Of a stretch of DNA of 64,000 nucleotides, positions 1 to 57,076 are shown piece by piece. Source of the stretch: Candidatus Parcubacteria bacterium (GTDB lineage Bacteria > Patescibacteriota > Minisyncoccia > Phycocordibacterales > PALSA-1337). The notes under the pieces were generated by a model. The model did not search any database and was not told where the DNA came from. It saw only the letters and a program-made list of their open reading frames with translations. The first letter of the stretch is position 1. Every line of letters begins with the position of its first letter. The position numbers and the translations under genes were made by a program. Location: assembly GCA_963766795.1 (NCBI GenBank), contig CAVYBN010000007.1, positions 54,389 through 118,388 of the forward strand, in the 5' to 3' direction.

Positions 1-3000
1 ATATAGTCAGGACCGGCGTGCCGGCCAGGTCGGCGCTGTAGCTCATGGGTGTGCCGTTGGCGGAAGTGCCGGAGATCGGCATGTCCACCCAGGTGATCAC
101 GCCTGAATCCTGTGCGAAATTCTCATTGCCCATCTCGAAGTAAGACGCGGAGGTCGAACCGGTATTCCAGTCATATGTGAATGAGCCGTTGCCGAGGTTG
201 AAGCCGCCTTGGAATGTCGAAGTCGAGGTCGTGGCGTCGGCGTTATAGTATCCAGCCGCGATACCGCCGTTGACTCCAAGTTGAAGATACGGCGAAGTCG
301 AAGCGATGCCAAAGAGGCCGTTCGAAGTGATGGTCAAATCCGGCATGGTCGAAGTCGAATACGCGTCGCTCGAAGTGCCGAGATAGAAGTTGCCGCCTTC
401 GGAGCTGAACAGCCAGTGCTTGAGGTTGGCGCCGGCGCCGCTGTCAGTCAGAGCCAATTGACCTTGGAATGTCCCATTGGCGGAAGTCGAAGCTATTTCA
501 AGAGACCAATTCGGAGTGGTGGTGCCGATGCCGACATTGGTTCCATTGTCGTAGATTAAGCTGTTCGCGAATGTGCCGTTGGAGTTCCATTTTGGCAGAT
601 AATTGTTGGTCAATGAAGAGACTGTTGATGAGCCGAGTAGGCCAAGCGAAGAAGTGGCCGACAATGTGTAGCCGCTCAAAGCGTTGCCGAGGAGAAGCTG
701 GCCGTAGTTTGGCGTTGACGACAATCCGGTGCCGCCGGAGGAGATAGCCAGAGCTGAAGCCAGAGACAGTGAATTCGCGGACAATGTGCCGACATTTCCA
801 TTCGTGGCATAAAGATTGGTGGATGAAGCCGTAGTCGCGTAGAAGCTGGTGGTGGTGGCGGCAGTGCCGGTGGCGTTGGTGAAGGTGAAGCTATTCAAAG
901 TGGAAGAGGCGAAGACATACAAGTTCGTCGTCGAAGCAAAGGATGAGCTGATCATCGTCGTTGAAGCGTATGGGAATTGCGAAGCGACTGAAGAAGTCGC
1001 AACAAAGTTCTGTGCCACGACTTGTCCTGCCACTGAAAGCAGTGAGTACGGCGATGTGGTGCCGATGCCGACCGCGCCGTTCTGGATGCCGCCGGAGCCG
1101 TTGGACTGCGCGTAGACGGTCAACAAGGGACTGCTGGCGATAGTGGCCGTATAGCTCTCGGCTACGCCGGCCGCGGCGCTGGATAGCGGCAGATCCACCC
1201 ACGAGACCGTGCCGGCGTCGGTGTCGAAGCTCAAGTTGCCGAGCTGGAGGTTGCTGATGGAAGTCACGCCCGAACCGAACGAATATTGGAGGGCGCCGCC
1301 GCCGACATTGAGCCCGCCGGCGAATGTCGAGGTGGCCGTAGTCGAAGTGGCGTAGAAATCATTGGCCACGACTTCCCCGGCCACCGAGAGCATGTCGTAG
1401 GGCGAAGTCGTGCCGATGCCGACATTGCCGGAGAGATACGAGGTCAAAGCGTTCGGGTCGAACCAGAACTTGGCCGTGGTAGTCGAGGTGTTGCCGATAG
1501 CCAGGATGTCGCTCCCATTCAGGGAATAATTGACGATCTCGCCGGAAACCTGCGAGGTCGTGGTCGCCCACGAGCTCAAGCTTCCGCCGCCGCCGGTGCC
1601 GCAAGCCGCGACGCTGGCCGAAACCGAGCCGTCCGTGCCGACCTGGAGGCATCGGGTCGAAACGCCTGCGAGGCTTTGCAAGACAGTGCTGCCGGAAACG
1701 TTCAAGTTGGTGGTCGAAGCGGTAGTCGCCGTGATCATGGTGGTCGAAGCATAGGCTATTTGCGAAGTCGAAGAAGCGTTGAAACCGTTCTGGAACCAAG
1801 CGATGCCTGTCGTGGCTTGGTCAGTGGCGGCAAAATTGGTCGACGGCGTGAATGGATACGCGAATGTGTCATAGCCTTGCTGTGAACCCCAGTAAGCGGC
1901 GGAAGTCGTGGAGAACGCGGTGATGCCCAAGCTGGAGGTCGCCAATTGCTGCCAGCCGCCGCCCGCGTACGAACCGAGAAGGATACCGGCGGCAGTTGGA
2001 TTGCTAATGCCCGTGCCTCCGCCTGCCGCTGTTAATATTCCGGAGCTGGTGGCATTGAAGGTGAATGAACCGCCTGTGTTGGTGATATATATGCCTGTGG
2101 TGAGGCCGTTATTGGTGGCACCGGTCGTGGTGCCAAGCGTTATGTTCCCTGTCTGCGCCGTTCCGTATGTCTGGGCGATCGTGAGCGAAGTGGTGGCGGA
2201 TTGGAGACAAGTGCCGCCGATGGCGTAGCAGCCGGAGGTGATGTTGTGACCGCCGGCAAAGGTCGAGGTGGCGGTGGTGGTGCCGACGAAGTATCCGGCG
2301 ACGGCGGCATTGCCGAGAGTGGAAGTGCCTTCGACGGAGAGAGCGAAGGTGGGAGACGATGTGCCGATGCCGACATTGGCAATATTGATATAAATATTAG
2401 GTCCCCCACCCGCCAGAGACCAATAGGTCGGGTTACTGCAAGAAGTCCATAATACTCCATCTCCTAAACCAGCTCCAAGACACTTGCTAAAAGAACCTAA
2501 TGAGCCTCCGGAATCAGCCACGGAACCCGAAAGATTAAGTATGTTAGAGACAGTCAGATTGGTGGTCGAGGCATTTACAAATTGAGAGGCTTTCGTGGAG
2601 GTGGCTGTCAAGTACGCGACCGTCGGCGAAGTCGAAGAGATGAACGCGCCGGAATTATTGATGCCGAGCCAGCCTTGGCCGAAGGAGGTCTGGCCGGTGC
2701 CGCCGTACAAAACCCCAATAGATGTCGTGGCCGAGACGACGCCGGAGATCGCTTGGAGCGGTCCGGTCAGAGAGCCGATAACCACAGAACCATTGTTGTT
2801 GACTTCAAACGGCGTGGTCGTACCGTTCGAAGTCGAAGAGCTGATGGCAAACATCGGCGCGGTAGCTGACCAGTTCGGCACGCCGATCGAGAGCGCCGCC
2901 CAAGGAGTCGAGCTTCCGATTCCCACATTGGTTCCGTTGTCGAAGATCAAAGAATTGGTGAAAGTTCCATTGGAGTTCCACTTTGGCAGATAATTATTTG

Positions 3001-3215
3001 TCAGTGAAGAGACGGTTGACGAGCCGAGAAGGCCGAGCGAGCTGGTGGCGGAGAGCGCGTATCCGCTTAGAGCGTTGCCGACCAATAGTTGGCCGTAGTT
3101 CGGCGTTGATGACAATCCCGTGCCGCCACCTGCGGCAGTGAGAATGCCCGAGGTAGTTGCGGACAGAGTAAATGAGCTGCCAGTGTTAGTTATGTATATT
3201 CCAGTTGTGAGCCCG
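1..3215 (-). repeat. Degenerate tandem copies of the repeat modules of the adjacent giant surface-protein gene. Minus-strand translation is protein-like but hops between frames and has no intact ORF. This is either a decayed 3' extension or pseudogenised paralogue, or a repeat-collapse assembly artefact.
   Basis: Blocks ~541-800, ~2040-2230 and ~2940-3130 match 3845-4110 of the giant gene at nucleotide level. Minus-strand translation of 3121-3238, in the frame offset by one from the called ORF, reads TSTGATNNGLTTGIYITNTGSSF.. TGLSSTPNYGQLLVGNALSGY, which matches the internal repeats of the giant protein. The six-frame track shows only short ORFs on either strand here. Confidence 0.5.
2622..2995. 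repeat. Near-identical direct duplicate (~375 bp) of 3472-3845, at an 850 bp period
   Basis: Identical runs are seen by eye (cggtcggcgaagtcgaagagatgaacgcgccggaattattgatgccgagccagcc...). The track ORFs 2595..2993 and 3490..3843 translate identically. Confidence 0.85.
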
Positions 3216-6200
3216 TTATTGGTGGCGCCGGTCGAAGTGCCGAGCCAAATGTTGCCGATCTGGGAAGTTCCGTATGTCTGCGCGATCGTGAGCGAAGTGG
3301 TGGCGGATTGGAGACAAGTGCCACCGATCGAATAGCAACCGCCGGTCAAGTTGAGTCCGTTTGCGAAAGTTGAAGAAGCTGTGGCTGATGTGGCGTTGAA
3401 GATGGAAGCGGAGAGGCCGGCCGGCGAATGTGGAGGTGGCGGTAGTGGAAGTCGAGACGATGTAGTTCACGGTCGGCGAAGTCGAAGAGATGAACGCGCC
3501 GGAATTATTGATGCCGAGCCAGCCTTGGCCGAAGGAGGTCTGGCCGGTGCCGCCGTACAAAACCCCAATAGATGTCGTGGCCGAGACGACGCCGGAGATC
3601 GCTTGGAGCGGTCCGGTCAGAGAGCCGATAACCACAGAACCATTGTTGTTGACTTCAAACGGCGTGGTCGTACCGTTCGAAGTCGAAGAGCTGATGGCAA
3701 ACATCGGCGCGGTAGCTGACCAGTTCGGCACGCCGATCGAGAGCGCCGCCCAAGGAGTCGAGCTTCCGATTCCCACATTGGTTCCGTTGTCGAAGATCAA
3801 AGAATTGGTGAAAGTTCCATTGGAGTTCCACTTTGGCAGATAATTGTTGGTGAGGCTTGAAACCGTTGACGAGCCGAGCAGACCAAGAGAAGAAGTGGCG
3901 CTACAGTGTAATATCCACTCAAAGCGTTGCCGAGGAGAAGCTGGCCGTAGTTTGGCGTATTGAAAGACCGGTGCCGCCGCCGGCCGCAGTGAGAGATTCC
4001 CGAGGTGGTGGCGTTGAAAGCTGAAGGAGCTTCCGGTGTTGGTGATGTATATGCCAGTGGTGAGTCCGTTATTGGTGGCGCCGGTTGAGGTGCCAAGCCA
4101 GATATTCCCCGTCTGCGCCGTTCCGTATGTCTGGGCGAGCGTCATCGAGGTGGTGGCTGACAATATTCCCAAGGACGAAGTCGCGTATTGCGTGTATCCT
4201 CCGACCGCATTGCCGATCAGCAATGACGATGAAGCTATCGAAGTCAGCCCGGTGCCGCCGTAGAGGACGCCGACAGAAGTGGTGGCCGAGACGACGCCGG
4301 CGTTGGCTTGCAAGGGACCGTTCAGCGATGAAGATAGAGTCAACGAATTGGCGCTGACTGAATTCAAAGCACTGGCTCCATTCACCGTCAAGGTTCCGAT
4401 ATTGCCATTAGTCGCGTAAAGGTTAGTTGAAGAAGCTGTGGCCGCGAAGAAATCGGTGGTGGTCGCGGCCGTGCCGGTGGCGTTCACGAAGGTGAAATTC
4501 TGCAGAGTCGAAGAGCCGGTCGAGAGAAGGTTCGGAAATTTCGCCAGACCGCCCACGGTCAGAGTGCCGGTGGCCGTGATGTCCCCGGCCGTCAGGCTTC
4601 CGGAAAAATATCCGTTGCCTTCGACCGTGAGCGGCATGAAGGGCGAGGTCGTGGCGATCCCGAGAAAGCCGAGCGTGGTGTCGAACAGGCTCTGGTAGTC
4701 TCCAAAGACCACATTGCCCTGCGAACCAAGGGAGGTGGAGCTGGCAGCCAAGACGACATTGCCTGAACCATCCGGCCCATATCCTCCTTCTATGTAGACG
4801 GCCCCTCCAAATTCACTGCCTTCTTCACCAACGCCGCCACTGGCGCTTCCGGCATTCCCTCCCAAGAGAGACAGATCACCACCGCCGCCGGCGATGTTGA
4901 AGGCGGCATTGTTAGACGCGTTGCCGCCGTTGCCGCCTTGGATCGTGACCGTGCCTCCCCAGCCGCCATTATTGAAGCCACTCCCGGTAACGACATTCTC
5001 CGAACCGCCGGTGCCGCCGAGGATGTTGACCGGACCGCCTTTGCCGCCGTTGATCTGGCCCGAGCCGGCGTTGGTGCTGACCCCGCCCAAGCCGCCGTTC
5101 AAGATGATCCCGCCGCCAATGCCGGCTATCGGAAAATTGCCGAAAGTGGAATACGAAGTGTTCCCGCCGGTCGCGCCAGTGACCAAGAGCGAAGTGGTGG
5201 CATTGGTGCCGTATTGGGTCGCAACCGACGCTGGTTGCGGGTTATTGATCATCAAGCCGCCGGTCGAGCCGAATAGGTTGAGCGTGAGCGCACCCACGGA
5301 ATTGACGACGGCCGCCAGATAGTCGGTGTTGTCGTACGCGAGATCGAGCTGCGGCACGGCCGAGGAATTGTTCTGGACCGAGAGCTTGGCGTATGGGCTC
5401 GTCGTGCCGATGCCGATATTGTTGGCGTCTTTGGTGGTCGTGCCGAAGACCAGAGTGCTGGTCGAGAAGACATTCGCGCCGTTCGCGCCGTAGAAAGCGG
5501 CCTGGCCGGCCACGCCGGTCTGGACAGAGGATGCGCCGAGCAGACCCAGTGTCGTAGTCGAGACTGACGTCCAATTGGAGCCGTTCCATTGGATCAGGCC
5601 GCCGGTTCCGAGCGATGTCCCGAGGCCGGCCGGAGCGGCGATGGTGGAGGATGAATTGACGAAATAGTTGGCCGAAGTGGTCGAGAAAGCTATGATGCCC
5701 AAGGACGAGGTGGCCATCGAAGAGACCGCGCCGTTGGTTCCGAACAGGATGCCATTCAAAGACGAGGCAAGATTGGTGGCGCCGCTGACCGTGAGCGAAT
5801 TTGCGGATACCGAATTCAAGGCCGACGCTCCATTCACGGTTAATGTTCCGATATTCCCGTTAGTCGCGTAAAGGTTAGTCGAGGAAGCCGTGGCCGCGAA
5901 GAAGCTGGTGGTGGTGGCGGCCGTGCCGGTGGCGTTCGTGAAAGTGAAATTCTGCAGAGTCGAAGAGCCGCTGACAAGGAGATTGCCGAGCGTCGCCAAG
6001 CCGCTCAAGAAAGACTTCTGCGCGTTCGGGTCGAACCAGAATTTGGCCGTGGTGGTGGAAGTGTTGCCGATGGCGATGACGTCGGTCGTGTTGTTGGAAT
6101 AGTTGACCAGTTCGCCGGAGACCTGCGAGGTGGTGGTCGACCACGAGCCGGCCGCGGCGGCGGCTCCGCCGCAACCCAGAGGATTGGCCGCGACCGTGCC

Positions 6201-9014
6201 GTCGGGACCGACTTGGAGACAGCGGATGGTCAAGCCGGTGAGGGCCGAGAGGACGACATTGCCGTTGAAAGTCGCGGAGCCTCCGAAGACATTCGCGCCG
6301 TTGAAAGTCTGGTCTCCGGTGAAGGTGTTGCTGGAAGATGTCTTGGAAATGGTCGATGAGCCGTTCGCGTAGTAGTCAGCCGAAGTCGTCGAGAATGAAA
6401 GGAAGCCCAAGCTCGAAGTGCCGGTCAAAGCGTAAGTGCCGTCCGATTGGCCCATCAACAGGTTGCCGTACGAGGGAGCGCTCGAAAGGCCCGTGCCGCC
6501 GTTGCCGACGGCCAGCGTGCCAGTGGTTGAAGACAGCGGAATCGAGAGATTCAAAGACGATGTCGCGATCGAAGAAACTGCTCCATTGGTCCCGAATAGG
6601 AGGCCGTTCAGAGCGCCGATGGTCAAGGCCGTGGTCGAAGCATACGGCAGTTGCGAAGCCGCGGAAGAAGTCGCGATGAAATTCGAAGCCGTCTGGTTGC
6701 CGGCGACGAAGGAATTGCCTTCGACGGAGAACAGCGCGAATGGCGAGGTCGTGCCGACGCCGACGTTACCGTTGGAGAGGATCGAGAGCACGGTCTGCGA
6801 AGCTTGGCCGAAGAATTCGGCGATCTTGCCGGCGCCGCTCTGCAAAACATTGATAAATGTTCCTGAAGATGAAGTGGCGTTCTGCGCGTCGCTCCGCAGG
6901 AATTGCGATGAATTCAGACCACTCAAAGCCTGCGCGTTGGTTGCCTCGAAGGCCGCCGGCACCGCGCCGAGGATCTTGCGCGGCGACATCTCGCCGTCCC
7001 ATGTCGGAGTCGGAGCGTTGGCCGTGCCGCCGATGTCGACGCCCAGATACAGCGTCTGATTGAAGTTGACGCCCGTGAATGGCGTGGTCGAGCCCAGCAT
7101 CAGGCTGAAAAGCCCGCTCTTCAAGGCCGCGCCTTGGCCATTCGAGACCAGATCATCCTCGGTCCAGATCGGCGCGCCGCCGGACAGCGAGGCGTAGAGC
7201 TTGAACTCGACGTTGTACGAGCCGTCGGCGACCGTGTTGCCCGAAGCGTCCATGAGCTTGCCCTGGTAGTTGATCTCGGGATTGAAAGCGGCGTAAGCGA
7301 TGGGCGAGAACAGCTTGAAGACGAGCGCGAAGATGACGAGAGAGGCGACGACGATGGGGATCGATTGGGAACGATCGCCAACACCGCCGCTCTCTTTCGG
7401 CGACAACACTGTTCCGTCCGAGACCGCTCTGCCTGTCGGCAGAATTGCGGCTCGGTCCGGAACAGTGTTCTCGCCTGCGAGAGCGGCTGACGAAACATTC
7501 TTATCAGTATCTTCGACCATAGCTCTTTGCGCATCGAAAGCCGAGAATTTGGTCGTCTTCCAAGCTGGCGCTTCGGCAATGACAGGATCTTTTTGGATTT
7601 CGGATTTCGGATTTGTCTCGTCCGCCGGCTGGCGGATCGGATTTCGGATTTCGGATTTGTCCGATTCTTGAATCTTGAATCTTGAATCTTGAATCTTCTC
7701 TCCGTTGCCTCCCTTGCCATTCTTGCGCCGCCTCCAGACGATGATCGCGACGATGATCGCGAGCAAGATGGCCGCCAAGATCCAGAGATAATTCCCGAAC
7801 GCGAAACCGGCTGGTAGAGAATTCAGAGCCGCGGCGGTGAAGGCGTCGAGCGAGCCGGAGAGCTGCTTCAAGCCTTGATTCTGATAGTCGAGGATGCTGA
7901 CCGTCAGAGGATATGAGCCGGACCTGCCCAAAGGCCCCATGGTCGCCTCGTAGTAGCTCTTGTCGGCGTTCGGCCGCAGGAGAAAGATGAAAGCTTTGGA
8001 ATGGTCGGCCGGATCGGAGAGGCCGAGCGCGATCGTCTTCAGGATCTGCGGCACGCGGTCGTAGCGCAGGCGGACGGTCAAGTCCTCGGTGCCATTCACG
8101 GAAACGGTGCCGCCGGCTCCGACCGGGATGAGCTTGCCGTCCTGGATGAATTGGAAGTCGAGCAATGACAAGCTGGCGATCATCGGGTCGACGTGCGCGG
8201 CTTGCTGGACATTGACGAAAGGATTCGAGGAGGTGGCCGCGGCGATCTCGCCCGGAAGCGGCATGCGCGCGAATGCCAAGGCGCCGGAAGAGACTATGCC
8301 GTTCATGCCCTCCGCGAAAATGGCGTAATAGTAGGTCACGCCAGCCTTGGCCGTGGCGTCGAAGTATGACTGCTCGGTTCCTTGATATATCGTTTCTCCG
8401 TCAGATTCATTCCCGGGGAAGAACGAGCTCGAACGGATGATCCTGACTTGGATGAAACGGAAGTCGGTCGGGTTCGTCCATAAGAGAGCGATGCCGTTCA
8501 CGAGCGGGGCGGCCGTGAAGCCGGACGGGTTCGGCAAAGGCAGAGTGCCGCCGCTCGAAGAACCGCCCGCGGCTTGTTTATTATTGGCTGGCGGCGTGAC
8601 TGGCGGCACGACCGGAGCGGGCGGAACCGTTTGCTGATAGCCGGCATGTACGGTTTGATCGGCGCTCGCGGAATATCCGGTGGCGACTTCGCCGGCGGTG
8701 TCTTCCGCGCTATAGCTCGCCGACTTCGAATTTCCGCCGCCGAAGTTCACGCTCTCTTCCTGCATCGAATAATGAGGGCTCTGCATCACTTGGGCGTGGG
8801 CGAGAGGAAGAGATGAGAGATTAGAGATAAGAGATAAGAGAAAAGCAAAACTCAAAAGGGAAAAGGCAAGTATTTTGTCACCCCAGCGAAGGCTGGGGTC
8901 CAGGGTATTGCCACCGACGGAATTGGTCGAACCTTGGATTCCCGCCTTCGCGGGAATGACAATAGAAATCGCGGGAATGACAAGCTTTTGAATTATGAGT
9001 TTCGAAATCTTCAT
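3216..9014 (-). CDS. Giant repetitive Gly/Ser/Thr/Asn-rich cell-surface protein. It has a signal peptide and a ~440-aa N-terminal domain ending in a 'LPAGF'-TM-RRRK segment. A linker made of repeat-element insertions follows, then a second signal-peptide-like TM, then a long beta-rich repeat region with recurring GTGLSS.PSYGNLL.G and N(V/I)GIGTTSP..(K)L.V modules. The called C-terminal ~300 codons are out of frame.
   Basis: A 5.8 kb ORF. Translation shows hydrophobic signal-like segments at the N-terminus and again at ~residue 560 (IPIVVASLVIFALVFKLFSPIAYA). Tail-fibre or adhesin-like repeat motifs occur many times. Two segments (SFQRHHLGNLSLRPAAAPVFQYAKLRP... and the final ...RPLRFHLQRHISHSFF...RRHQ) are Arg/His-rich nonsense, typical of wrong-frame read-through in GC-rich DNA. 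Confidence 0.6.
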   Translation of the reverse strand: MKISKLIIQKLVIPAISIVIPAKAGIQGSTNSVGGNTLDPSLRWGDKILAFSLLSFAFLLSLISNLSSLPLAHAQVMQSPHYSMQEESVNFGGGNSKSASYSAEDTAGEVATGYSASADQTVHAGYQQTVPPAPVVPPVTPPANNKQAAGGSSSGGTLPLPNPSGFTAAPLVNGIALLWTNPTDFRFIQVRIIRSSSFFPGNESDGETIYQGTEQSYFDATAKAGVTYYYAIFAEGMNGIVSSGALAFARMPLPGEIAAATSSNPFVNVQQAAHVDPMIASLSLLDFQFIQDGKLIPVGAGGTVSVNGTEDLTVRLRYDRVPQILKTIALGLSDPADHSKAFIFLLRPNADKSYYEATMGPLGRSGSYPLTVSILDYQNQGLKQLSGSLDAFTAAALNSLPAGFAFGNYLWILAAILLAIIVAIIVWRRRKNGKGGNGEKIQDSRFKIQESDKSEIRNPIRQPADETNPKSEIQKDPVIAEAPAWKTTKFSAFDAQRAMVEDTDKNVSSAALAGENTVPDRAAILPTGRAVSDGTVLSPKESGGVGDRSQSIPIVVASLVIFALVFKLFSPIAYAAFNPEINYQGKLMDASGNTVADGSYNVEFKLYASLSGGAPIWTEDDLVSNGQGAALKSGLFSLMLGSTTPFTGVNFNQTLYLGVDIGGTANAPTPTWDGEMSPRKILGAVPAAFEATNAQALSGLNSSQFLRSDAQNATSSSGTFINVLQSGAGKIAEFFGQASQTVLSILSNGNVGVGTTSPFALFSVEGNSFVAGNQTASNFIATSSAASQLPYASTTALTIGALNGLLFGTNGAVSSIATSSLNLSIPLSSTTGTLAVGNGGTGLSSAPSYGNLLMGQSDGTYALTGTSSLGFLSFSTTSADYYANGSSTISKTSSSNTFTGDQTFNGANVFGGSATFNGNVVLSALTGLTIRCLQVGPDGTVAANPLGCGGAAAAAGSWSTTTSQVSGELVNYSNNTTDVIAIGNTSTTTAKFWFDPNAQKSFLSGLATLGNLLVSGSSTLQNFTFTNATGTAATTTSFFAATASSTNLYATNGNIGTLTVNGASALNSVSANSLTVSGATNLASSLNGILFGTNGAVSSMATSSLGIIAFSTTSANYFVNSSSTIAAPAGLGTSLGTGGLIQWNGSNWTSVSTTTLGLLGASSVQTGVAGQAAFYGANGANVFSTSTLVFGTTTKDANNIGIGTTSPYAKLSVQNNSSAVPQLDLAYDNTDYLAAVVNSVGALTLNLFGSTGGLMINNPQPASVATQYGTNATTSLLVTGATGGNTSYSTFGNFPIAGIGGGIILNGGLGGVSTNAGSGQINGGKGGPVNILGGTGGSENVVTGSGFNNGGWGGTVTIQGGNGGNASNNAAFNIAGGGGDLSLLGGNAGSASGGVGEEGSEFGGAVYIEGGYGPDGSGNVVLAASSTSLGSQGNVVFGDYQSLFDTTLGFLGIATTSPFMPLTVEGNGYFSGSLTAGDITATGTLTVGGLAKFPNLLSTGSSTLQNFTFVNATGTAATTTDFFAATASSTNLYATNGNIGTLTVNGASALNSVSANSLTLSSSLNGPLQANAGVVSATTSVGVLYGGTGLTSIASSSLLIGNAVGGYTQYATSSLGILSATTSMTLAQTYGTAQTGNIWLGTSTGATNNGLTTGIYITNTGSSFSFQRHHLGNLSLRPAAAPVFQYAKLRPASPRQRFEWILHCSATSSLGLLGSSTVSSLTNNYLPKWNSNGTFTNSLIFDNGTNVGIGSSTPWAALSIGVPNWSATAPMFAISSSTSNGTTTPFEVNNNGSVVIGSLTGPLQAISGVVSATTSIGVLYGGTGQTSFGQGWLGINNSGAFISSTSPTVNYIVSTSTTATSTFAGRPLRFHLQRHISHSFFNFRKRTQLDRRLLFDRWHLSPIRHHFAHDRADIRNFPDRQHLARHFDRRHQ
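8877..8981. repeat. Family-A palindromic element, inserted in frame at the 5' end of the giant gene (peptide VIPAKAGIQGSTNSVGGNTLDPSLRWGDK). It has an extra partial arm at 8971-8981.
   Basis: gtcaccccagcgaaggctggggtccag ... ttggattcccgccttcgcgggaatgac. The inverted arms match the consensus of the other copies. Confidence 0.8.
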
Positions 9015-9019
9015 AATCG

Positions 9020-10438
9020 TTAATTGACCGCGCTCGTCGAAGTCGCCTTGACCGGCACCAAGACGTACAGGAAGTCGTGCCCGGCCACCGTCCTGAAGAC
9101 CGGTTGGATCACGCCGGTGGTCCCGTCCGGATTCGGCCTTACCGTGACCGCGTCGGAGAACGAATTCTGGATGCTCTTCTCGAGCTTGACCTGATCCGAC
9201 GGCGAACCGGAGGGCGGCAGGATGACCACGCCTCCGTGCTCGGCCGTGACCTTGCCTTGTTCTCCGGGCGGGATCACCGACGAGGCGGGCGGCTCTTCCG
9301 ATCCCACGCCGACATCCGCGCTCTCGTCGACGCCGCCATTCAAAACAACCGTAGCGTTCGCATTCGCACTCGAACCGGCGCTCGAAGAAGCATTCACCGC
9401 ATCCGTGCCGCCGACCGCCAGGCTATTCGAAGGCCGGCTGGAATCATTGCTTGCGATCAGTGACAAGGCGTTCGAAGCCAAGCTGGAAGTCCCCGAGAAC
9501 ATCGAGCTCCAAGCCGAGGCTAGCGTCTCGCCGGCTCCGGCGGCGATATTCTCAATCGATTGGAGCGCGATCTGCGGCAAAGACTGGATGGCCGAAGCGG
9601 CTTCCGCGACATTGGCGGCCGAAGCATTTTCCAAAGACGAGACGCTCGAAGAAATGTCTGCGAACGTTTGAGACGGATGCAGACGGGAATTCCCCATAGC
9701 CGTCATCGCGACCAAGAAGATGACCGCCGCCAATGTCGGCGAGAGCAAAGCATACGGAGAACGGACCGCTGATGCGAATCTTTCTGTCGGAGTCGGAAGA
9801 TACGTCCACTTCCAAGCCGGCGGAGGTTCGACGGCCGGCAATTGTCGATTGATGATCGACGCCTGGGCGCGAGCATCGAGCTTGGAGATCGTGACGCGAG
9901 CGACATCGGCTAGCGTTTCGCGGATAGGGATTGAAGATTGCAGATTGAAGATTGAAGATTCACGATTGACGAATGTTTTGTCATTCCCGTGCAAACGGGA
10001 ATCCAGTGTTTTTTCTCTGATGTCAATCGTTTCACCCTGGATCCCCGCTTTCGCGGGGATGACAGAATTACTTGAAATGAGTGATTTCTGATCTTGAATT
10101 TCGGATTTCGGATTTGTCTCGGATTTCGAATTTCTGATTTCGGATTTTGTGGTCATTTCTGACATCGCAGGCTTGAGGTCAATGATCGTCGAAATTCCCT
10201 CATCAGTGAGGCCGAAAACATCCATCTTTTTGAAGATCGTTTGGTTCGGTTTTATCGACTCTTTTTTGTGACGCAAAATTGAGTTCTCGTCGACGTACCA
10301 GAAGCGTCCGACCATTCTGCAGATCAATTTTCCAGCGCGACAAAGCTGACCGACGTAGTCGTTTGAATATCCGGCTATCTCGGCAGCTCGGCGAGACGAG
10401 ATGTATTGCCTGCCTTCGATAATTAGTGAGTCGCTCAT
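9020..10438 (-). CDS. Membrane protein with an N-terminal excisionase/MerR-like HTH domain, a single TM helix (LAAVIFLVAMTAMG) and a Ser/Ala-rich extracytoplasmic tail. Its stop lies 5 bp before the giant-gene start.
   Basis: The N-terminus (RRAAEIAGYSNDYVGQLCRAGKLICRMVGRFWYV) resembles the small HTH protein at 10938..11189. Hydrophobic stretch at ~residue 225. The C-terminal 230 aa are low-complexity S/A/N-rich. The intergenic distance to 9014 is only 5 bp. Confidence 0.55.
   Translation of the reverse strand: MSDSLIIEGRQYISSRRAAEIAGYSNDYVGQLCRAGKLICRMVGRFWYVDENSILRHKKESIKPNQTIFKKMDVFGLTDEGISTIIDLKPAMSEMTTKSEIRNSKSETNPKSEIQDQKSLISSNSVIPAKAGIQGETIDIREKTLDSRLHGNDKTFVNRESSIFNLQSSIPIRETLADVARVTISKLDARAQASIINRQLPAVEPPPAWKWTYLPTPTERFASAVRSPYALLSPTLAAVIFLVAMTAMGNSRLHPSQTFADISSSVSSLENASAANVAEAASAIQSLPQIALQSIENIAAGAGETLASAWSSMFSGTSSLASNALSLIASNDSSRPSNSLAVGGTDAVNASSSAGSSANANATVVLNGGVDESADVGVGSEEPPASSVIPPGEQGKVTAEHGGVVILPPSGSPSDQVKLEKSIQNSFSDAVTVRPNPDGTTGVIQPVFRTVAGHDFLYVLVPVKATSTSAVN
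9980..10063. repeat. Family-A palindromic element, in frame in the HTH-membrane gene (VIPAKAGIQGETIDIREKTLDSRLHGNDK)
   Basis: gtcattcccgtgcaaacgggaatccag ... ctggatccccgctttcgcggggatgac. Confidence 0.85.
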
Positions 10439-10643
10439 TCGGTGTAATTATACCTTTCATTCTCCTAATATGATTGGGGATAACCCGCTTCGCGGGTTTC
10501 CAACACTGCACTCTGATGTCGTGAATAGAATTAGCATTCACGCGTCCTCGCTTGTGTGGATAAGTGCCATTTTTCCGACCAATTTTTGATCCTACTTCAT
10601 TGTCGATTTCTGACCAAAAAAAATCGTCATTTTCGACCACCAT

Positions 10644-10937
10644 TTTGACCCTCTACAAGCCCCTAGGAGACGCGATAATTTCAAATACAATATTAGCCCA
10701 CATCAAAATCATTTAAAAAGGCATTCTTTAGCTACAATAACCGGGCCGAATCACATAGGTCCGACCTCAGTAAAACATCTGATAGTGTCAGCAAGAAAAA
10801 TATTGACATACCGATCGACGGAGGTCCGACCTGTGTGATTCTAAGTAATCCACTATGTTGATAACTCTTGCTATTTTATGATGAATTATGATGTATAATT
10901 ATCAAGGTTTAATAATCTATCTTAATGCTTCAATTCC
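10644..10937. promoter_or_regulatory. AT-rich divergent intergenic region between the HTH-membrane/giant-protein operon and the small HTH gene. It contains a split inverted pair of the GGTCCGACC hairpin motif (10756-10775 and 10826-10848) flanking a TTGACAT -35-like hexamer.
   Basis: gaatcacatAGGTCCGACCTcag ...(50 bp incl. ttgacat)... ggAGGTCCGACCTgtgtgattc. These are the only non-coding ~300 bp in the first 11 kb. The genes diverge from it. Confidence 0.4.
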
Positions 10938-11189
10938 ATGCCCAATAATAAACTAATTTCGATAAAGGAAGCATCTCAAATGCTCGGCGTGACGCCGCTT
11001 ACGCTCCGGAATTGGGATAAATGCGGAAAATTAAGGGCTATGAGGCATCCTATGAACAATTATAGGGTCTATAAGGCCGAGGAAATCGAGCATTTGCTGG
11101 ATAATATGATGGATCGCAAGCCGGCTTTGTATGTTCCGGAGCGAAAAAAGACTCGTAGGCTTGAAGTAAGGCACCTGGGAGAAGATTGA
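10938..11189 (+). CDS. Small excisionase/MerR-family HTH DNA-binding protein (83 aa)
   Basis: ASQMLGVTPLTLRNWDKCGKLRAMRHPMNNYRVYKAEEIEHLL resembles the excisionase-type HTH (HTH_17-like). It is a paralogue of the N-terminus of the 9020..10438 product. Confidence 0.6.
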   Translation: MPNNKLISIKEASQMLGVTPLTLRNWDKCGKLRAMRHPMNNYRVYKAEEIEHLLDNMMDRKPALYVPERKKTRRLEVRHLGED

Positions 11190-11355
11190 TGCAAGATTCC
11201 ACGCCCTTCGGGCACTTTCTCAAGGTGGGTTTTTAAAAATAGCCGAGAGCTTTAATTCTCGCCTCGCCGAGATATCCACCAACATAGGGCTATCTCGGAT
11301 GCACTTGACAGCGCTTTGTGATAAAATATTGTATAATTAATCCATCGAAAAACAT

Positions 11356-12997
11356 ATGAAATATATACCGGTGATCGGTCTGGAAATACACGCCGAGCTC
11401 AAGACAGCCTCGAAGATGTTCTGCTCCTGCAAGAATGACCCTGACGAGGAAAGGCCTAATTCCAATATCTGCCCCATTTGCCTAGGCCATCCGGGCACTT
11501 TGCCGGTATTGAATCGCGAGGCCATAAAGCACGTGCTAAAGGTCGGTGTGGCAGTCAACGGCAAATTGGCCGACTTCACCGAGTGGGACCGCAAGAACTA
11601 CTTTTATCCGGACATCCCCAAGGGCTATCAGATCAGCCAGTACAAGTATCCGCTTGGTCTCCGACGGCGAGCTTGCCGGCGTCGCGCTCGAGCGCATCCA
11701 CCTCGAAGAAGACACCGCGCGCTCCACTCATGACATCGAGGTCGGACCTCGACACGGAATACCCAGAGGTCCGACCTCTCTAGTCGACTTCAACCGATCG
11801 GGAGTCCCTCTCTTGGAGCTCGTGACCAAGCCTGTCATCCACGACTCTGCGACCGCAGTCAGGTTCGCGAAGGAACTGCAATTGCTCCTGCGCTCTCTCG
11901 GCGCCGGCGACGCGAACATGGAGAAGGGCGAGATGAGAGTCGAAGCGAACGTGTCAGTTAGTAAGATTGATGAAGAGATAGGAGATAAGAGATTAGAGAT
12001 TAGAGAACGGCGGAGTTCGAAGGTGTCTGTCATTCCCGCTGATTCTTTTGTCATCCCCGCGAAAGCGGGGATCCAGAGTCAAACTATTGAAGGTGGTAAT
12101 ACACTGGATTCCCGCGTGCGCGGGAATGACAAAATTAAACTTGGAACGAAAACAGAAGTTAAGAACTTGAATTCATTCAGGTCGGTGGAGAAAGCGATCG
12201 AGTACGAGATCGAACGTCAGACTTCCCTCTTGGAGAAGGGCGAGGCTGTCGTCCAAGAGACTCGAGGATGGGACGACTCGCTCGGCGAAACTTATCCTCA
12301 ACGATCGAAAGAGAGCTCGCACGACTATCGCTACTTCCCTGACCCGGACATACCCAAGATGAAGCTCTCGGAGATCCCGGAGTTCTCGTCCGCTGAATTG
12401 AAGAAGTCCTTGCCAGAGCTGCCGTGGGTTAAACGAGACCGATTCAAGAAAGATCTCGGCATGACCGACAAAGAGGTTTCGGTGTTCGTTGAGAATGATT
12501 TTCTTTCGGCATATTTCGATCAGACGATTAAAGCCACCGGCACAGATAAGAAGATCGTTCGTCTCGTGATCAATTATCTTCTGACCGATTACGTCGCACT
12601 TTTAAAAGGCTCGACTGATTTGAATGGACAACGGCACCAGTTCCATTTGAATCCTCTGTACATCGAGCCGAAACATTTCGCCGAGCTCATTTCAATGGTC
12701 GCCTCCAATGAGATCTCATCCAGAGGCGCCAAAGACTTGCTTGCGATCCTCTTAAAGGAAAAGGATACTTCACCCAAAGTTCTTGCCAAGAAGCACAACC
12801 TCCTCCAAAAGAGCGACGCCGCAGACATCTCGCCGATCATCGAAAAAGTCATCGCAGACAACGCCAAAGTCGCCGCCGAGTTCAAAGCTGGCAAGACTGC
12901 ATCGCTCCAATTCCTGATCGGCCAGGCCATGAAAGCCGCCAAGGGTTCGGCTAATCCGGAGGTAGTCAAGAAGCTTCTCATTGAAAAGCTTGGCTGA
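11356..12997 (+). CDS. gatB: Asp-tRNA(Asn)/Glu-tRNA(Gln) amidotransferase subunit B. It is split by an apparent +1 frameshift near 11655-11665 and carries at least three in-frame repeat insertions.
   Basis: The N-terminus MKYIPVIGLEIHAELKTASKMFCSC...NICPICLGHPGTLPVLN and the later IHLEEDT...YRYFPDPDIP are canonical GatB. The frame-1 ORF 11356..11733 and the frame-2 ORF 11546..12997 overlap, and the conserved sequence continues across them (..QISQYKYPL | VSDGELAGVALERIHLEEDTA). Inserted peptides are HDIEVGPRHGIPRGPTSL, SKIDEEIGDKRLEIRERR and VIPAKAGIQSQTIEGGNTLDSRVRGNDK. Confidence 0.85.
12029..12129. repeat. Family-A palindromic element (with an extra half-arm at 12029-12045), in frame in gatB
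   Basis: gtcattcccgctgattcttttgtcatccccgcgaaagcggggatccag ... ctggattcccgcgtgcgcgggaatgac. Confidence 0.85.
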
Positions 12998-50849: not shown

Positions 50850-50942
50850 AGTACCAATAGTAAATAGTAAAGAGAAAATAGTAAATAGCTGGAAATTTTC
50901 TGATCTTTTTTACTATTTACTATTTCATATTTACTATCTCTT

Positions 50943-51242
50943 TTACTCCACTTTCAAGACCTTCTTCAGCACTTCTTCCGGCACTTCGCCGGGTTTGGCC
51001 GGTGAAGAAGCCGACGATTGAGATGCGGGCGCAGACGAAGAAGATGGGGCCGTTGATTTAGCTACAGGCGGAACCGATGCAGGTGAAGCTGGAACCATGG
51101 CAGCCGGATTCGAATCAGCGATCGGCATCAACGGATCTGACTTCAATGGTTGCGATTGCGGTGCTGGTGAAACGGCTGACGGTTTGGCCAGCGCGGCCGC
51201 GAGAGCGCTGCGGAGGTCGTTGACATTCTTAACCGTCGGCAC
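50943..51242 (-). CDS. Pro/Ala/Ser-rich low-complexity protein (99 aa). It may be the same gene as 51369..51779 in a shifted frame.
   Basis: Compositionally biased PASV-rich sequence ending ...EVPEEVLKKVLKVE. Confidence 0.3.
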   Translation of the reverse strand: MPTVKNVNDLRSALAAALAKPSAVSPAPQSQPLKSDPLMPIADSNPAAMVPASPASVPPVAKSTAPSSSSAPASQSSASSPAKPGEVPEEVLKKVLKVE

Positions 51243-51368
51243 TTTCGGATCTATGCGCGGCGCGGGCGGCTTTGGAGCCAGTGAAGAAAGAGAGACTGGC
51301 TTTGATGGCTCGACAGGCGACGATTGCGATGCAGTCGGAATGGAAGCCTTTGAATTGGAAGTTGGAGC

Positions 51369-51779
51369 TCACAGATTGGCTGGGAGCGGCGAGTGGGCCG
51401 GTTTTAAATCGACTGTCGGAACCGAGGCTTTCGAATCGGCCATAATCGGCTTCTGTGCAATCACTTGATTCAAGACAACAAACGGCTTGTGAGTCACACC
51501 TGCATTCGAGGCGGGCGAGGCAGAGCTTCCGAAGAGCCGAGGACTGTCCGAGCGAGCAGAGATCGAAGCCTTTAAAGAAGGGTTTGCGTCAGCCGCGCCT
51601 TCTTTGTCATCCCCGCGAAAGCGGGGATCCAGTGTCTTTGTTGTTTGACCCTGGATTCCCGCTTGCGCCTTCGCTTCGCTTCGGCTTGCGGGAATGACAA
51701 CAACATCCTTCGCGGGACTGCTTCGAATCTCTGCCTTCTTCACCGTCGGCTCATGGAACTTGACTATCCCCTCCTCCAC
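51369..51779 (-). CDS. Pro/Ala/Ser-rich low-complexity protein containing a Family-A element in frame. It overlaps the VirD4-like gene end by 29 nt.
   Basis: VIPASRSEAKAQAGIQGQTTKTLDPRFRGDDK, then S/P/A-rich sequence. Confidence 0.3.
   Translation of the reverse strand: MEEGIVKFHEPTVKKAEIRSSPAKDVVVIPASRSEAKAQAGIQGQTTKTLDPRFRGDDKEGAADANPSLKASISARSDSPRLFGSSASPASNAGVTHKPFVVLNQVIAQKPIMADSKASVPTVDLKPAHSPLPANL
51606..51698. repeat. Family-A palindromic element (a variant with a ~25-bp insert in the right arm)
   Basis: gtcatccccgcgaaagcggggatccag ... ctggattcccgcttgcgccttcgcttcgcttcggcttgcgggaatgac. Confidence 0.8.
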
Positions 51780-53031
51780 TTCTGCGCGCGGCTTCGGAGA
51801 ACTGCTCGCGCGAAGCGGCGATGATGTCCGTGAAATACGACGTGCTCGGATGCGCGATCGGCGGCAGAGTCATGGCCGAGAATGGCGGCGAAGTCAGGCC
51901 GTCGATCATCAGCTTCAGGTATATCTGCGCAAAGCCCAGATTGACCAGATCCTCGATCTCGAACTGCGGCGTGAACTCATTCTCGAGCATCTCCGCGTCG
52001 TTGGCACCGATGCGGAAGAGGATCATCGTGCCGACGTTGCCGAAGACCGCCGGCCGCACGAACTCGTCCATCTGCTCGACGTATTGGTGGGCGATGGTCA
52101 GGTTGAGCTTGTATTTGCGGGCTTCGGACAGGATGTCCGCGAATGACGCGTTGGCGAAGTTCTGGAATTCGTCGACGAACAGATAGAAGTTCGGCAGCAT
52201 CTTCATGACGCGGTCCGGCACGTCGGCGCGCGACATCGCCGCCAGGTATATCTTGGTCACCAGAAGTCCCCCGAGGAGCTTCATGTTCTCGTCGCCGATC
52301 TTGCCCTTGGACAGGTTGATGATCATGATCTTCTTCTTGTCCATGGCCTCGCGGAAATCGAACGACGAATGCGGCTGGCCGATCATGTTCCTGATCAGCG
52401 GGTTGGCCGTGAATTGTCCGACCTTATTCTGGATGGCCGGCACGGCCTCGGCGGCCTGACGCTCGGTGTAGCTGGCGAACTCCTTGGTCCAGAAAGCTTT
52501 CACTGAAGGGTCTTTTATGTATGAGACGATGTCATTCCTGTATGCCTTGTCCGAGAGCATCCTATTCACGCCCAAAAGAGTCGAGCCCGGTGCTTCGAGG
52601 AGCGCCAGGAGAGTATTGGTCAGAATGTATTCCATGCGAGCCGACCAAGCGTCTACCCAGATCTTCTTGAAAGTGCTCATCAGGCCGGAGACGACCAGAT
52701 GGCGCTTGTCGGGATCGATCGATTCGAGGACGTTGAATGAGATCGGGTATTCGGTGTCGAAAGGCGCGATGTAAATGACATCGCGGATGCGGGACTGCGG
52801 CACATATTCCATGAGGAGGTCGGCGGTCTTGCCGTGCGGGTCGATGAAGCACATGCCCTCGCCGTTCTGGATATCCTGGACGGCCATGTTCTCGAGCAAG
52901 GTGGATTTGCCCATGCCGGTCTTGCCGATGACATAGACGTGGCGGGTGCGATCCTTGGCCTTGATGCCGAACTTCACCCGCTTGTTGCGGGCATCCGTCT
53001 CGGCGAAATATGTGATCTTATTCTCGTCCAT
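51751..53031 (-). CDS. Soluble VirD4/TraD/TraG-like (TrwB_AAD_bind or HerA/FtsK-like) P-loop ATPase
   Basis: Walker A VIGKTGMGKST, Walker B LFVDEFQNF, and a coupling-protein-like AHQYVEQM...GNVGTMILFRIG block. No N-terminal TM segment. Confidence 0.65.
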   Translation of the reverse strand: MDENKITYFAETDARNKRVKFGIKAKDRTRHVYVIGKTGMGKSTLLENMAVQDIQNGEGMCFIDPHGKTADLLMEYVPQSRIRDVIYIAPFDTEYPISFNVLESIDPDKRHLVVSGLMSTFKKIWVDAWSARMEYILTNTLLALLEAPGSTLLGVNRMLSDKAYRNDIVSYIKDPSVKAFWTKEFASYTERQAAEAVPAIQNKVGQFTANPLIRNMIGQPHSSFDFREAMDKKKIMIINLSKGKIGDENMKLLGGLLVTKIYLAAMSRADVPDRVMKMLPNFYLFVDEFQNFANASFADILSEARKYKLNLTIAHQYVEQMDEFVRPAVFGNVGTMILFRIGANDAEMLENEFTPQFEIEDLVNLGFAQIYLKLMIDGLTSPPFSAMTLPPIAHPSTSYFTDIIAASREQFSEAARRSGGGDSQVP

Positions 53032-53273
53032 TCGAGGTTATTTTAACATAAAATCGGCCGGAAATGGCATCCACTTAAGTATGGCATAAACAGAAACCCG
53101 CGACTCATTGCTGAGCCGCGGGGCAAATCCGTGAAAGTTTTGAGCTTGCGCTCGCGGTTCTTTCGACCGAGTGGGTATAGCCACTATTCACTTAACGAAG
53201 TCAACATTCATCGTCTTGTGATAAGTTCGGAAATAAACCGCGACATTACTTTCGTACCAATATGGTTTCGTTA

Positions 53274-53561
53274 CTAGAAGTTGCACGCCTGCGACTTGGT
53301 CATCGTAATCATCATCCAAGTGGAGGATGATGCTCTGACCAATATTGACGCGAGACACAGCCGTCGAGAAATCGTGTACTCTTTACCTTTCACAGTGATA
53401 TAGGTGTTAATCCGTCCACTGCTGTGGGAAGTAATAATGACATTCTCAACCACTGCTCCTATTACCTTTGCAAAACCATTCAGCTCCAGGAAGAGCCGTG
53501 GGGGTAAGCGTTTTGTATCTCGAAGAAGACCAAGCCTCATGGGTTTGTTTTTAATTTTCAA
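53274..53561 (-). CDS. Small hypothetical protein (95 aa) in a low-GC island
   Basis: An isolated ORF divergent from 53829..54074. No motif recognised. Confidence 0.3.
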   Translation of the reverse strand: MKIKNKPMRLGLLRDTKRLPPRLFLELNGFAKVIGAVVENVIITSHSSGRINTYITVKGKEYTISRRLCLASILVRASSSTWMMITMTKSQACNF

Positions 53562-56135: not shown

Positions 56136-56951
56136 TCACACAGGTCGCACCTGTGTATTCGAAACTATGACCACGAATTCTCCCCTGACTTTATCCGGAC
56201 GCGCTTCGAAGTATGCCTTGATTTCAATTGGCGTGCCAGCCACGACTTCTTCAAATATTTTTGTCAGTTCGCGGCAAATCGTTACCTTCTTAATCGCATT
56301 CTCAAAAGGAACTTTGGCCAGACCTTTGCGATTCTTAGAAGCAGATTTCGAGTGCGTATCAATAGTGGTGGGATCTAAATGCTCATCAATCGCAACCTGA
56401 CCTAAATGCTTTGCAAGCGAATCGAGGGTCTTGATTATTCGGTGCGGCGATTCATAGAAGACCATCGTGCGTTCCGAAGCGGCTATTTCTTTGAAGAGAG
56501 TTTCTCGGCCCTTCTTGTGCGGCAAAAATCCCAGGAATGTTAAGTCTGCGCATGGCACGCCGGCTATCGATAGAGCGGCAGTCAATGCTGACGGACCTGG
56601 CACTGATTCGATCTTGATCGTCCCAGCATTGATTTCAATCGACAATTCACGGCGAATGCGTGCCACCAATTCAGCACCAGGATCGGAGATGCCAGGCGTA
56701 CCGGCGTCTGAAACTAACGCTAAATTTTTTCCTTCCTTTAAGAGGCCGATTATTTCATCGACGCGCGAGAGCTGGCTATGCGTGTGGTACGACAATGTGT
56801 GGACTTTAATGCTATGCCGATCAAGCAGCCGCTTGGTCATGCGAGTGTCTTCGCAGAGAATCACGTCCGCCGATGCTAAGACTTTAAGGGCCCGAAGAGT
56901 TATGTCTTCGAGATTGCCTATGGGCGTGCCGATGATTGAAAGCGTAGCCAT
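56136..56951 (-). CDS. rsmI: 16S rRNA (cytidine1402-2'-O)-methyltransferase RsmI
   Basis: LSIIGTPIGNLEDITLRALKVLASADVILCEDTR ... SDAGTPGISDPG ... tetrapyrrole-methylase fold motifs. A Family-B hairpin overlaps its last codons. Confidence 0.9.
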   Translation of the reverse strand: MATLSIIGTPIGNLEDITLRALKVLASADVILCEDTRMTKRLLDRHSIKVHTLSYHTHSQLSRVDEIIGLLKEGKNLALVSDAGTPGISDPGAELVARIRRELSIEINAGTIKIESVPGPSALTAALSIAGVPCADLTFLGFLPHKKGRETLFKEIAASERTMVFYESPHRIIKTLDSLAKHLGQVAIDEHLDPTTIDTHSKSASKNRKGLAKVPFENAIKKVTICRELTKIFEEVVAGTPIEIKAYFEARPDKVRGEFVVIVSNTQVRPV

Positions 56952-56976
56952 GCGAATACTCTAGCATATCCAGTAG

Positions 56977-57076
56977 GAGCGAGAGAAACATGCCCGTGAA
57001 GGACTTTGCCAACAAAACGAATACCAGGAATATTGGCACGGGGGCACCGTCCTGAATGGGCATGTTTCTCTCGCTC
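56977..57076. repeat. Family-D MITE-like element with 19-bp perfect terminal inverted repeats, intergenic
   Basis: gagcgagagaaacatgccc ... gggcatgtttctctcgctc. Confidence 0.8.

Follow-up and report, generated by a model that had tools for sequence, protein, structure and literature searches.

A TrwB/VirD4-like ATPase gene with an interrupted disordered tail in a Parcubacteria genome, and its possible place in a split coupling protein

The window analysed here is a 64,000-nucleotide stretch of the 157.8-kb contig CAVYBN010000007.1 from a Candidatus Parcubacteria bacterium. On its reverse strand, between positions 50943 and 53031, lie an ATPase open reading frame (ORF) and, downstream of it, two ORFs rich in Pro, Ala and Ser (PAS-rich). 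The three are a single gene whose disordered C-terminal tail is cut off by a one-nucleotide insertion and a TGA codon. The core of the encoded protein is predicted to be an ATPase with the fold of the coupling proteins TrwB and VirD4, and the gene is chromosomal, syntenic and vertically inherited in Paceibacteria-type Patescibacteria. We tentatively favour the reading that it encodes the cytoplasmic motor half of a split, domesticated type IV coupling protein (T4CP) linked to a type IV secretion system (T4SS).

Three ORFs form one interrupted gene

The features of the gene are as follows, all on the minus strand.

51751..53031: ATPase ORF, 426 aa as read
51369..51779: PAS-rich ORF 1, 136 aa
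50943..51242: PAS-rich ORF 2, 99 aa
51796..53031: ATPase core, 412 codons; predicted TrwB/VirD4-like nucleotide-binding domain with an inserted all-alpha domain (Pfam, AF2, Foldseek)
51795..51797: 1-nt insertion (TCG to TCCG) that shifts the frame (DNA alignment with L081, tblastn)
51372..51794: tail part 1, with junction helix, PAS-rich linker and HKPF motif (alignment of 117 full-length orthologues)
51369..51371: in-frame TGA, a nonsense codon (three-frame translation; Ser in the orthologue P0004)
50946..51368: tail part 2, with conserved motif, linker and terminal amphipathic peptide (alignment of 117 orthologues)
50943-50945: tail stop codon TAA

In tblastn searches, the 740-aa orthologue P0004 matches frame -2 over 53031-51796 and frame -3 over 51794-50946, and P0002 likewise changes from frame -2 to -3 at 51796/51794. 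Each of the two aligns along the whole of the three ORFs, interrupted once by a frame switch and once by a stop; the ATPase ORF and the two PAS-rich ORFs are therefore pieces of one gene. The sole frame change lies where the ATPase ORF gives way to the tail, 'TTC TCC G AAG' at 51795-51797 having one base too many, and the DNA alignment with the 99%-identical relative L081, the reference for all DNA-level comparisons, contains a single gap at exactly this position. Past the insertion, the ATPase ORF as read adds 14 out-of-frame codons and ends at the TGA at 51751-51753. The two PAS-rich ORFs share a frame and are divided only by the single in-frame TGA at 51369-51371. The reconstructed uninterrupted protein has 695 aa, from a gene of 695 codons.

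The gene was compared over 78 loci. An intact single ORF of 568-780 aa is present in 76 of the 78, the interruption being confined to the window and L041. The original prediction had left open whether the PAS-rich ORFs were a separate disordered partner protein or a C-terminal extension of the ATPase; orthologues encode them as the tail of the same gene, which settles the matter in favour of the extension. It had also described shifted, overlapping frames, which is true of the ATPase ORF and the tail (one 1-nt shift) but not of the PAS-rich ORFs with respect to each other.

TGA is the terminator of 15 of the 36 long ORFs in the window and the genetic code is therefore standard; on the same count UGA recoding (genetic code 25) was ruled out. 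Programmed frameshifting is unlikely, as no slippery sequence is found at TTCTCCGAAG when the site is read directly. The practical point for the window is thus a correction of its annotation, from three ORFs to one interrupted gene.

The disordered tail

The downstream region is rich in Pro, Ala and Ser, as had been predicted, these residues making up 47.5% of it and 18.9% of the core. In orthologues the usual tail is disordered, 170-350 aa long, and carries conserved short linear motifs. The core is followed by SREQFxxPRAEVEEEIVKFHEP, then a PAS-rich linker and HKPF; after HKPF come KPVSLSSLAPKP..(R/K)(V/I)DPKVPTxKNVxDLKSALAAVL, a further linker and a terminal KEVPE(D/E)VLKKVLKV(D/E). The window encodes every one of these motifs, spread across its three ORFs (minus strand).

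51747-51794: junction helix KPRAEVEEGIVKFHEP, conserved in the 117-orthologue alignment
51462-51491: HKPF motif
51186-51302: conserved tail motif KPVSLSSLAPKPPAPRIDPKVPTVKNVNDLRSALAAALA
50946-50990: terminal amphipathic peptide GEVPEEVLKKVLKVE

Conservation of the motifs in tail part 2 among the 117 full-length orthologues lies between 0.5 and 0.9. The terminal conserved motif, EVPEEVLKKVLKVE, persists in P0170, a relative of 54% identity, and the terminal peptide has a hydrophobic moment of 0.54, comparable to that of the FtsA membrane-targeting helix. It is strongly amphipathic and therefore could equally be a membrane tether. The tail motifs [IV]SLxxL and one resembling LRSALAAAL are common to the window clade and to P0153 and P0187, orthologues of the split clade described below. 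In these two proteins (loci L083 and L085) a treble-clef zinc finger, PF23477, replaces part of the PAS linker (aa 447-482 of P0153 and aa 586-616 of P0187), and the [IV]SLxxL and LRSLL-like motifs are retained.

The ATPase core is predicted to have the TrwB/VirD4 fold

The three motifs that had been reported for the 426-aa protein were located in the core (minus strand).

52903-52926: Walker A, GKTGMGKS, aa 36-43
52162-52182: Walker B, LFVDEFQ, aa 284-290 (VDEF at aa 286-289)
52072-52095: AHQ block, IAHQYVEQ, aa 313-320

Among 55 diverse homologues G36, G39, G41 and K42 do not vary, and the conservation of D287 and E288 is 90% or more. The profile searches that had been suggested place the protein with coupling-type ATPases: TrwB_AAD_bind passes its Pfam gathering score over aa 24-324 (29.8 vs 20.5 bits), as do DUF87, the HerA central domain (28.8 vs 23.2), TraG-D_C (24.7 vs 22) and T4SS-DNA_transf (22.9 vs 20.1), whereas FtsK_SpoIIIE falls below its cut-off (13.1 bits vs 24). 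More specific NCBIfam models were missed widely, namely TraD and CD1115 (45.8 vs 366, 39.2 vs 250 and 37.5 vs 647 bits) and the VirB4 model TIGR00929 (13.2 bits vs 643), and the protein lacks the VirB4 N-terminal domain. A sub-threshold match to NCBIfam CedD was set aside as uninformative for the window protein, as it covers merely the P-loop region of that membrane-anchored archaeal HerA/VirB4-like ATPase.

The best sequence match in the PDB is TrwB (E 8e-6). An AlphaFold2 (AF2) model of the core as a monomer, with pLDDT 94 and pTM 0.91, consists of a nucleotide-binding domain with a helical insert at approximately aa 107-231, between Walker A and Walker B. When this model was compared with the PDB by Foldseek, TrwB ranked first (E 1e-14, template-modelling (TM) score 0.61-0.64) over ~414 columns that include the all-alpha domain; HerA came below it (TM 0.53-0.54), followed by Cag-beta, DotL and VirB4. 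Because TrwB outranks HerA, the coupling-type assignment of the original prediction holds at the level of the fold, and a HerA/NurA reading does not.

The core has no hydrophobic segment, its maximum Kyte-Doolittle mean over 19 residues being 1.18 compared with 1.9-3.0 in anchored paralogues, and Walker A begins at residue 36; an N-terminal transmembrane domain is lacking. The absence of a membrane anchor, already noted from the sequence, is thereby borne out.

Relatives of the window protein also occur in Bacillus phage G (gp156) and other large Bacillus phages, and the 824-position PHROG profile phrog_5156, of unknown function, matches it through the profile's C-terminal half (E 5.8e-58). 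It is also matched by the PADLOC model for mad8, of methylation-associated defence (E 7e-16).

Conservation and genomic neighbourhood

Exact look-up of the 426-aa product yielded no record. A protein search returned >8000 homologues. Its 120 best matches come exclusively from Patescibacteria; over 97% of the query they share 84-99% identity with it, and almost all have 580-740 aa. An exhaustive search gave 22,065 cluster representatives at E <1e-3 and 5,990 at <1e-30. The 80 species-level genomes in which a close relative occurs are likewise all Patescibacteria, labelled for example Taylorbacteria, Nomurabacteria, Yonathbacteria, Zambryskibacteria or Parcubacteria, names that belong to the class Paceibacteria (PMC12102498 Table S1).

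The core is among the most conserved proteins of its neighbourhood, on a level with MraY: across 77 relatives the median identity to the window copy is 78.8% for the core and 77.9% for MraY, followed by RsmI (58.8%), an ATP-grasp protein (47.5%) and DUF4015 (46%). It is under strong purifying selection, with 59 synonymous and 8 non-synonymous differences from L081 (dN/dS 0.033). The dS of the core is 0.25 (51796-53031 vs L081:3937-5172), about four times below the value of 1.0 for rsmI (56391-56982 vs L081:794-1385), which suggests either constraint on synonymous sites, as with high expression, or recent recombination between relatives.

Upstream neighbours are DUF4015 (in 61 of the 78 loci), a small membrane protein, RsmI, the ATP-grasp protein, MraY, a FemAB-like protein and a Mur ligase. 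Downstream lie glycosyltransferases and, farther out, SecA and MurB. Genes for VirB4, VirB6, a relaxase, a pilin or competence were found neither in the window nor, in the 78 loci, at a distance of up to ~10 kb. The earlier statement that relaxase, VirB4 and pilin are missing from the window was therefore correct, and the VirB-like or competence genes for which a search nearby had been suggested did not turn up.

A likely membrane partner, DUF8128, fused or encoded separately

In many representatives of the family, the same core (45-57% identity) forms the C-terminus of proteins of 730-1,100 aa. The N-terminal 300-450 aa of these fused paralogues consist of one transmembrane helix and the domain PF26449 (DUF8128), for which the literature searched contains no mention. 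The module also exists as a stand-alone protein of ~430-470 aa with one transmembrane helix and a large alpha/beta domain. Such a gene lies directly upstream of the soluble, 52-56%-identical orthologues P0153 and P0187, and its products match the N-terminal part of fused paralogues over their full length (E 7e-44 and 8e-16). The stand-alone gene is itself preceded by one for a protein with a sigma-70 region-4 helix-turn-helix (HTH) and a HARE-HTH.

The arrangement recurs in metagenomes. Among 80 metagenome loci, DUF8128 stands directly upstream of 22 of the 45 soluble ATPases on the same strand, mostly 2-38 nt away, and 17 of these 22 pairs are preceded by the HARE-HTH gene, which is also directly upstream of 14 of the 49 fused genes. 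In a neighbour-joining tree the window clade is nested within the soluble, split clade.

By tblastn, neither DUF8128 nor HARE-HTH is present in the window or in L001-L081. In L175 (Ca. Paceibacterota) and L176-L179 (Ca. Nomurabacteria), the order of genes is BipA, HARE-HTH, DUF8128, YceG and MnmA with no ATPase adjacent, whereas other lineages have the ATPase gene between those for DUF8128 and MnmA. This orphan DUF8128 shows 66-81% identity across its 120 best matches. The simplest reading of these gene orders is that in the window lineage the ATPase gene would have moved out of an ancestral operon of HARE-HTH, DUF8128 and ATPase.

Two other arrangements were seen. L175 has a small N_methyl gene (type IV pilin-like; L175:9487-9816) between its HARE-HTH and orphan DUF8128 genes, in this one Paceibacterota genome. 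L082 carries two fused DUF8128-ATPase paralogues on a single contig (L082:1783-4560 and L082:9067-11415; 925 and 782 aa), with a Peptidase_M23 gene and a DUF5671 gene between them, possibly a remnant of a T4SS-like cluster in a patescibacterial genome.

Relatives in conjugation-like contexts

Outside Patescibacteria, the core is 23-40% identical to proteins of plasmids and some phages, in hosts that include Streptomyces, Embleya, Rhodococcus, Bacillus and haloarchaea. A plasmid of the actinobacterium Embleya sp. NBC_00896 encodes an 812-aa protein (WP_331738717.1) composed of a DUF8128-like N-terminal part (E 1.8e-12 to P0186) and the core (29.6% identity), and the signature 'ELAxxxHLP' of the DUF8128 module is found in this T4CP and in the fused paralogues. 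On one side of its gene are those for a PrgI-family protein and a second ATPase, and on the other side those for a replication-relaxation protein and an NlpC/P60 hydrolase; the cluster is of the monoderm conjugation type. In L089 a tandem version of the ATPase adjoins a Replic_Relax gene in an integrase-bearing element. The closest plasmid relative (40% identity), from Sulfitobacter, has transposases on its flanks and its context is uninformative.

A model of a fused paralogue (pLDDT 88.8) aligns with full-length TrwK/VirB4 over 850-890 columns (E 1e-15), with a TM score of just 0.29-0.32, and its ATPase part aligns with TrwB at TM 0.62-0.68, normalised to the target.

Proposed function

A survey of Patescibacteria reported 5,713 VirD4-type T4CP homologues in 2,918 of 3,035 genomes (96%), just 148 of them near virB4, with VirB4 in 2,417 genomes (80%) and relaxases almost absent (Quinonero-Coronel et al. 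2025, PMC12102498). Paceibacteria commonly have a VirB4 T4SS elsewhere in the genome (PMC12102498 Table S1).

Under the motor-half reading that we tentatively prefer, the core would form a hexameric, ATP-driven ring, by analogy with TrwB. This ring may be anchored to the membrane by a DUF8128 protein made from a gene of its own. In paralogues and in the Embleya cluster DUF8128, the likely anchor, forms one protein with the same ATPase, and in other Patescibacteria its gene lies directly upstream of the orthologue. The ring would feed a polymer substrate towards a patescibacterial T4SS encoded elsewhere. That substrate would most likely be DNA, presented by the co-operonic sigma-region-4/HARE-HTH protein, though it could also be protein. 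Adaptors or partners may dock on the tail motifs, in analogy to the C-terminal extensions of DotL and TraD.

Several points weigh against this proposal. The loci of the window type lack DUF8128, HARE-HTH, VirB4, VirB6 and relaxase genes both in the window and within ~10 kb in the 78 loci, and the overlap between the window-type ATPase and the orphan DUF8128 is one of taxon labels only. The conserved neighbours are cell-envelope genes (DUF4015, RsmI, MraY, Mur ligases and glycosyltransferases), and conservation at the level of MraY is unusual for a coupling protein. T4CP homologues are also more widespread than VirB4, and in transposon sequencing (Tn-seq) of Ca. Southlakia epibionticum the t4cp homologue was not essential, whereas the T4SS was (PMC12102498). 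Furthermore, the tree carries no support values, and hexamer, ATPase activity, substrate and tail role are all inferred.

The original prediction suggested that the locus may be part of a minimal apparatus for DNA uptake, DNA transfer or cell-cell attachment, which is not supported as it stands. The gene sits among housekeeping genes of the cell envelope, in a lineage where a VirB4 T4SS is commonly found elsewhere and the likely DUF8128 partner is at another locus.

The main alternative, which we judge possible but unlikely, is an exapted housekeeping translocase independent of any T4SS, in which ATPase, DUF8128 and HARE-HTH protein together serve an essential function of the chromosome or envelope, for instance importing DNA for nucleotide salvage, handling the chromosome at division or exporting an envelope polymer. 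The extreme conservation of the ATPase would fit such a role, as would its strictly chromosomal, vertical synteny beside peptidoglycan and glycan genes and the setting of the HARE-HTH/DUF8128 pair among BipA, YceG, MnmA and ribosomal genes. The rarity of linkage to virB4 and the greater prevalence of T4CP homologues point the same way, and the authors of the survey themselves wrote that exaptation "cannot be ruled out" (PMC12102498). However, synteny inside one class is a weak argument, nothing was found that ties the ATPase directly to any of these processes, and the nearest contexts of a characterised type, those of Embleya and L089, are conjugation-like. ComEC-dependent transformation, moreover, was reported to be non-essential in Southlakia (PMC12857230).

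A bolder version, which we put forward as speculative and rather doubtful, is that the ATPase, the orphan DUF8128 and the HARE-HTH protein make up one vertically inherited machine found throughout Patescibacteria, of conjugative descent but relaxase-free and independent of the VirB4 T4SS, with the disordered tail as a hub for recruiting partners. One possibility for its role is that of a DNA translocase for acquisition of host DNA or for chromosome handling. On this reading, conservation at the level of MraY would make the ATPase a core, possibly essential, part of the episymbiotic cell.

A third alternative concerns the gene itself, which might be a decaying pseudogene, in the process of being lost from this strain and with a core ORF that only seems intact. 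The gene bears a frameshift and, independently of it, a nonsense codon, its counterpart in L041 is broken too, and P0015 has an independent frameshift near the same core/tail junction. Nevertheless, both lesions lie in the tail and the 412-codon core, constrained as described above, is free of them. Beyond the two lesions the amino-acid sequence of the tail motif remains conserved, its differences from L081 being mostly synonymous. Because core and downstream motif are both still conserved, the lesions must be either very recent or assembly errors. The insertion falls exactly at the boundary between the near-identical core and the hypervariable tail, and such a boundary is a typical trouble spot for metagenome assembly. 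In addition, more distant lineages naturally have forms of 415-456 aa that lack a tail, and the truncated protein could therefore still work. Taken together, we consider loss of the gene improbable. Should the sequence be correct, the product in this strain is an ATPase of 426 aa that has no tail; if not, both lesions are assembly errors.

Finally, a HerA-type repair helicase or FtsK-like pump, that is, a soluble hexameric double-stranded DNA translocase acting with a nuclease or in chromosome segregation, is very improbable: DUF87 passes its gathering score, HerA (4d2i) is found by both sequence and fold searches and the PADLOC HerA and mad8 models match, but TrwB is the better match and over the full length including the all-alpha domain, FtsK_SpoIIIE stays below its cut-off, the FtsK membrane domain is lacking, and no NurA or other nuclease is adjacent in the 78 loci.

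T4CP homologues are near-universal in Patescibacteria and almost never beside virB4, and the family has already been annotated and counted. What is added here is that in this family the ATPase is paired with a DUF8128 membrane module, either split from it or fused to it, that a DNA-binding protein with two HTH domains usually precedes the pair of ATPase and DUF8128, that the components occupy separate loci in Paceibacteria-type lineages (the ATPase in the window clade, the DUF8128 pair in two Nomurabacteria-type lineages), and that the ATPase is conserved like MraY and has a motif-studded disordered tail. Together these points turn an annotation label into a testable three-component hypothesis.

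A mobile palindromic element and other features of the window

The following features lie within or beside the gene.

51606..51698, minus strand: Family-A palindromic element, 93 nt or 31 codons, in frame in the tail (VIPASRSEAKAQAGIQG..LDPRFRGDD)
53097..53122, minus strand: terminator-like GC-rich hairpin followed by a T run (consensus scan, a pattern match only)
50857..50937, no strand assigned: AT-rich 29-nt inverted repeat (repeat search), between the tail stop and the next gene (start 50849)

The original prediction had correctly placed a Family-A element in one of the PAS-rich ORFs. The copy in the tail is also present in P0004 and is absent from P0002 and P0003. Presence or absence of an exact 93-nt copy among orthologues of 95-99% identity suggests that the element has moved recently and that its in-frame insertion is tolerated. 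The window contains 18 copies of the half-site GCGGGAATCCAG, compared with 0.48 expected, over a span of 8934-63379, with pairs at 9995/10048, 12065/12115, 15570/15623, 17313/17366, 18964/19020, 51621/51662 and 57429/57479. The element encodes ..AGIQ../..DPRFRGDD.. and its copies are mostly within ORFs, namely a 472-aa ORF, GatB, SecA (twice), MurB, the ATP-grasp protein and the ATPase tail.

The hairpin stands 65 nt 5' of the ATPase ATG and sets the gene apart from two overlapping small ORFs of 95 and 56 aa just upstream (53188-53561, minus strand). At about this position the syntenic locus of P0004 has a 146-aa DUF7736 gene, and the small ORFs may be a second split gene of the neighbourhood; they have no homologue in the compared loci and no Pfam match, and a second frameshift is not established. 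At the other end of the window, positions 1-10500 have 56-60% GC compared with ~50% elsewhere (46.6% in the bin 10001-12000). This GC-rich segment contains a 1932-aa ORF (3216-9014, minus strand) and the 472-aa ORF (9020-10438, minus strand), neither with a Pfam match.

Comparison with known systems

Like TrwB of R388, VirD4 and TraD, the window protein has a RecA-like nucleotide-binding domain with an inserted all-alpha domain, both Walker motifs and the HQ block. It departs from these canonical coupling proteins in its sequence, which is ~16% identical, in the absence of an N-terminal transmembrane domain and in having a split partner, DUF8128. The gene is also off mobile elements and has no relaxase or mating-pair genes nearby, and its family combines conservation at the level of MraY with a long, PAS-rich disordered tail bearing short linear motifs. 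With the HerA/VirB4 branch of the FtsK-HerA superfamily it shares the P-loop core, and the DUF87 model is passed, but the ATPase domain is closer to TrwB.

DotL and the TraD of the F plasmid are coupling ATPases with a C-terminal extension that binds adaptors or accessory proteins. The tail of the window protein differs from these extensions in being a low-complexity sequence of Pro, Ala and Ser with three or four short conserved motifs, and it has no sequence similarity to them.

The T4CPs with a DUF8128 module share the core (30% identity in Embleya and 45-57% in the patescibacterial fused forms). The window protein corresponds to their ATPase half only, and the stand-alone DUF8128 of related Paceibacteria lineages is at a separate locus. 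Unlike the Embleya gene, that of the window has no PrgI, second ATPase, replication-relaxation protein or NlpC/P60 hydrolase beside it. A division of labour similar to the one proposed here has been suggested for plasmid pIP501, where, according to a T4SS review (PMC12857230), TraI, a membrane protein of its own, is the proposed anchor of the T4CP TraJ, which is without a membrane domain. Both models thus have a coupling ATPase that would rely on a separately encoded membrane protein. The two membrane proteins differ in build: TraI is small and has two transmembrane helices, whereas DUF8128 proteins have ~430-470 aa and a large alpha/beta domain.

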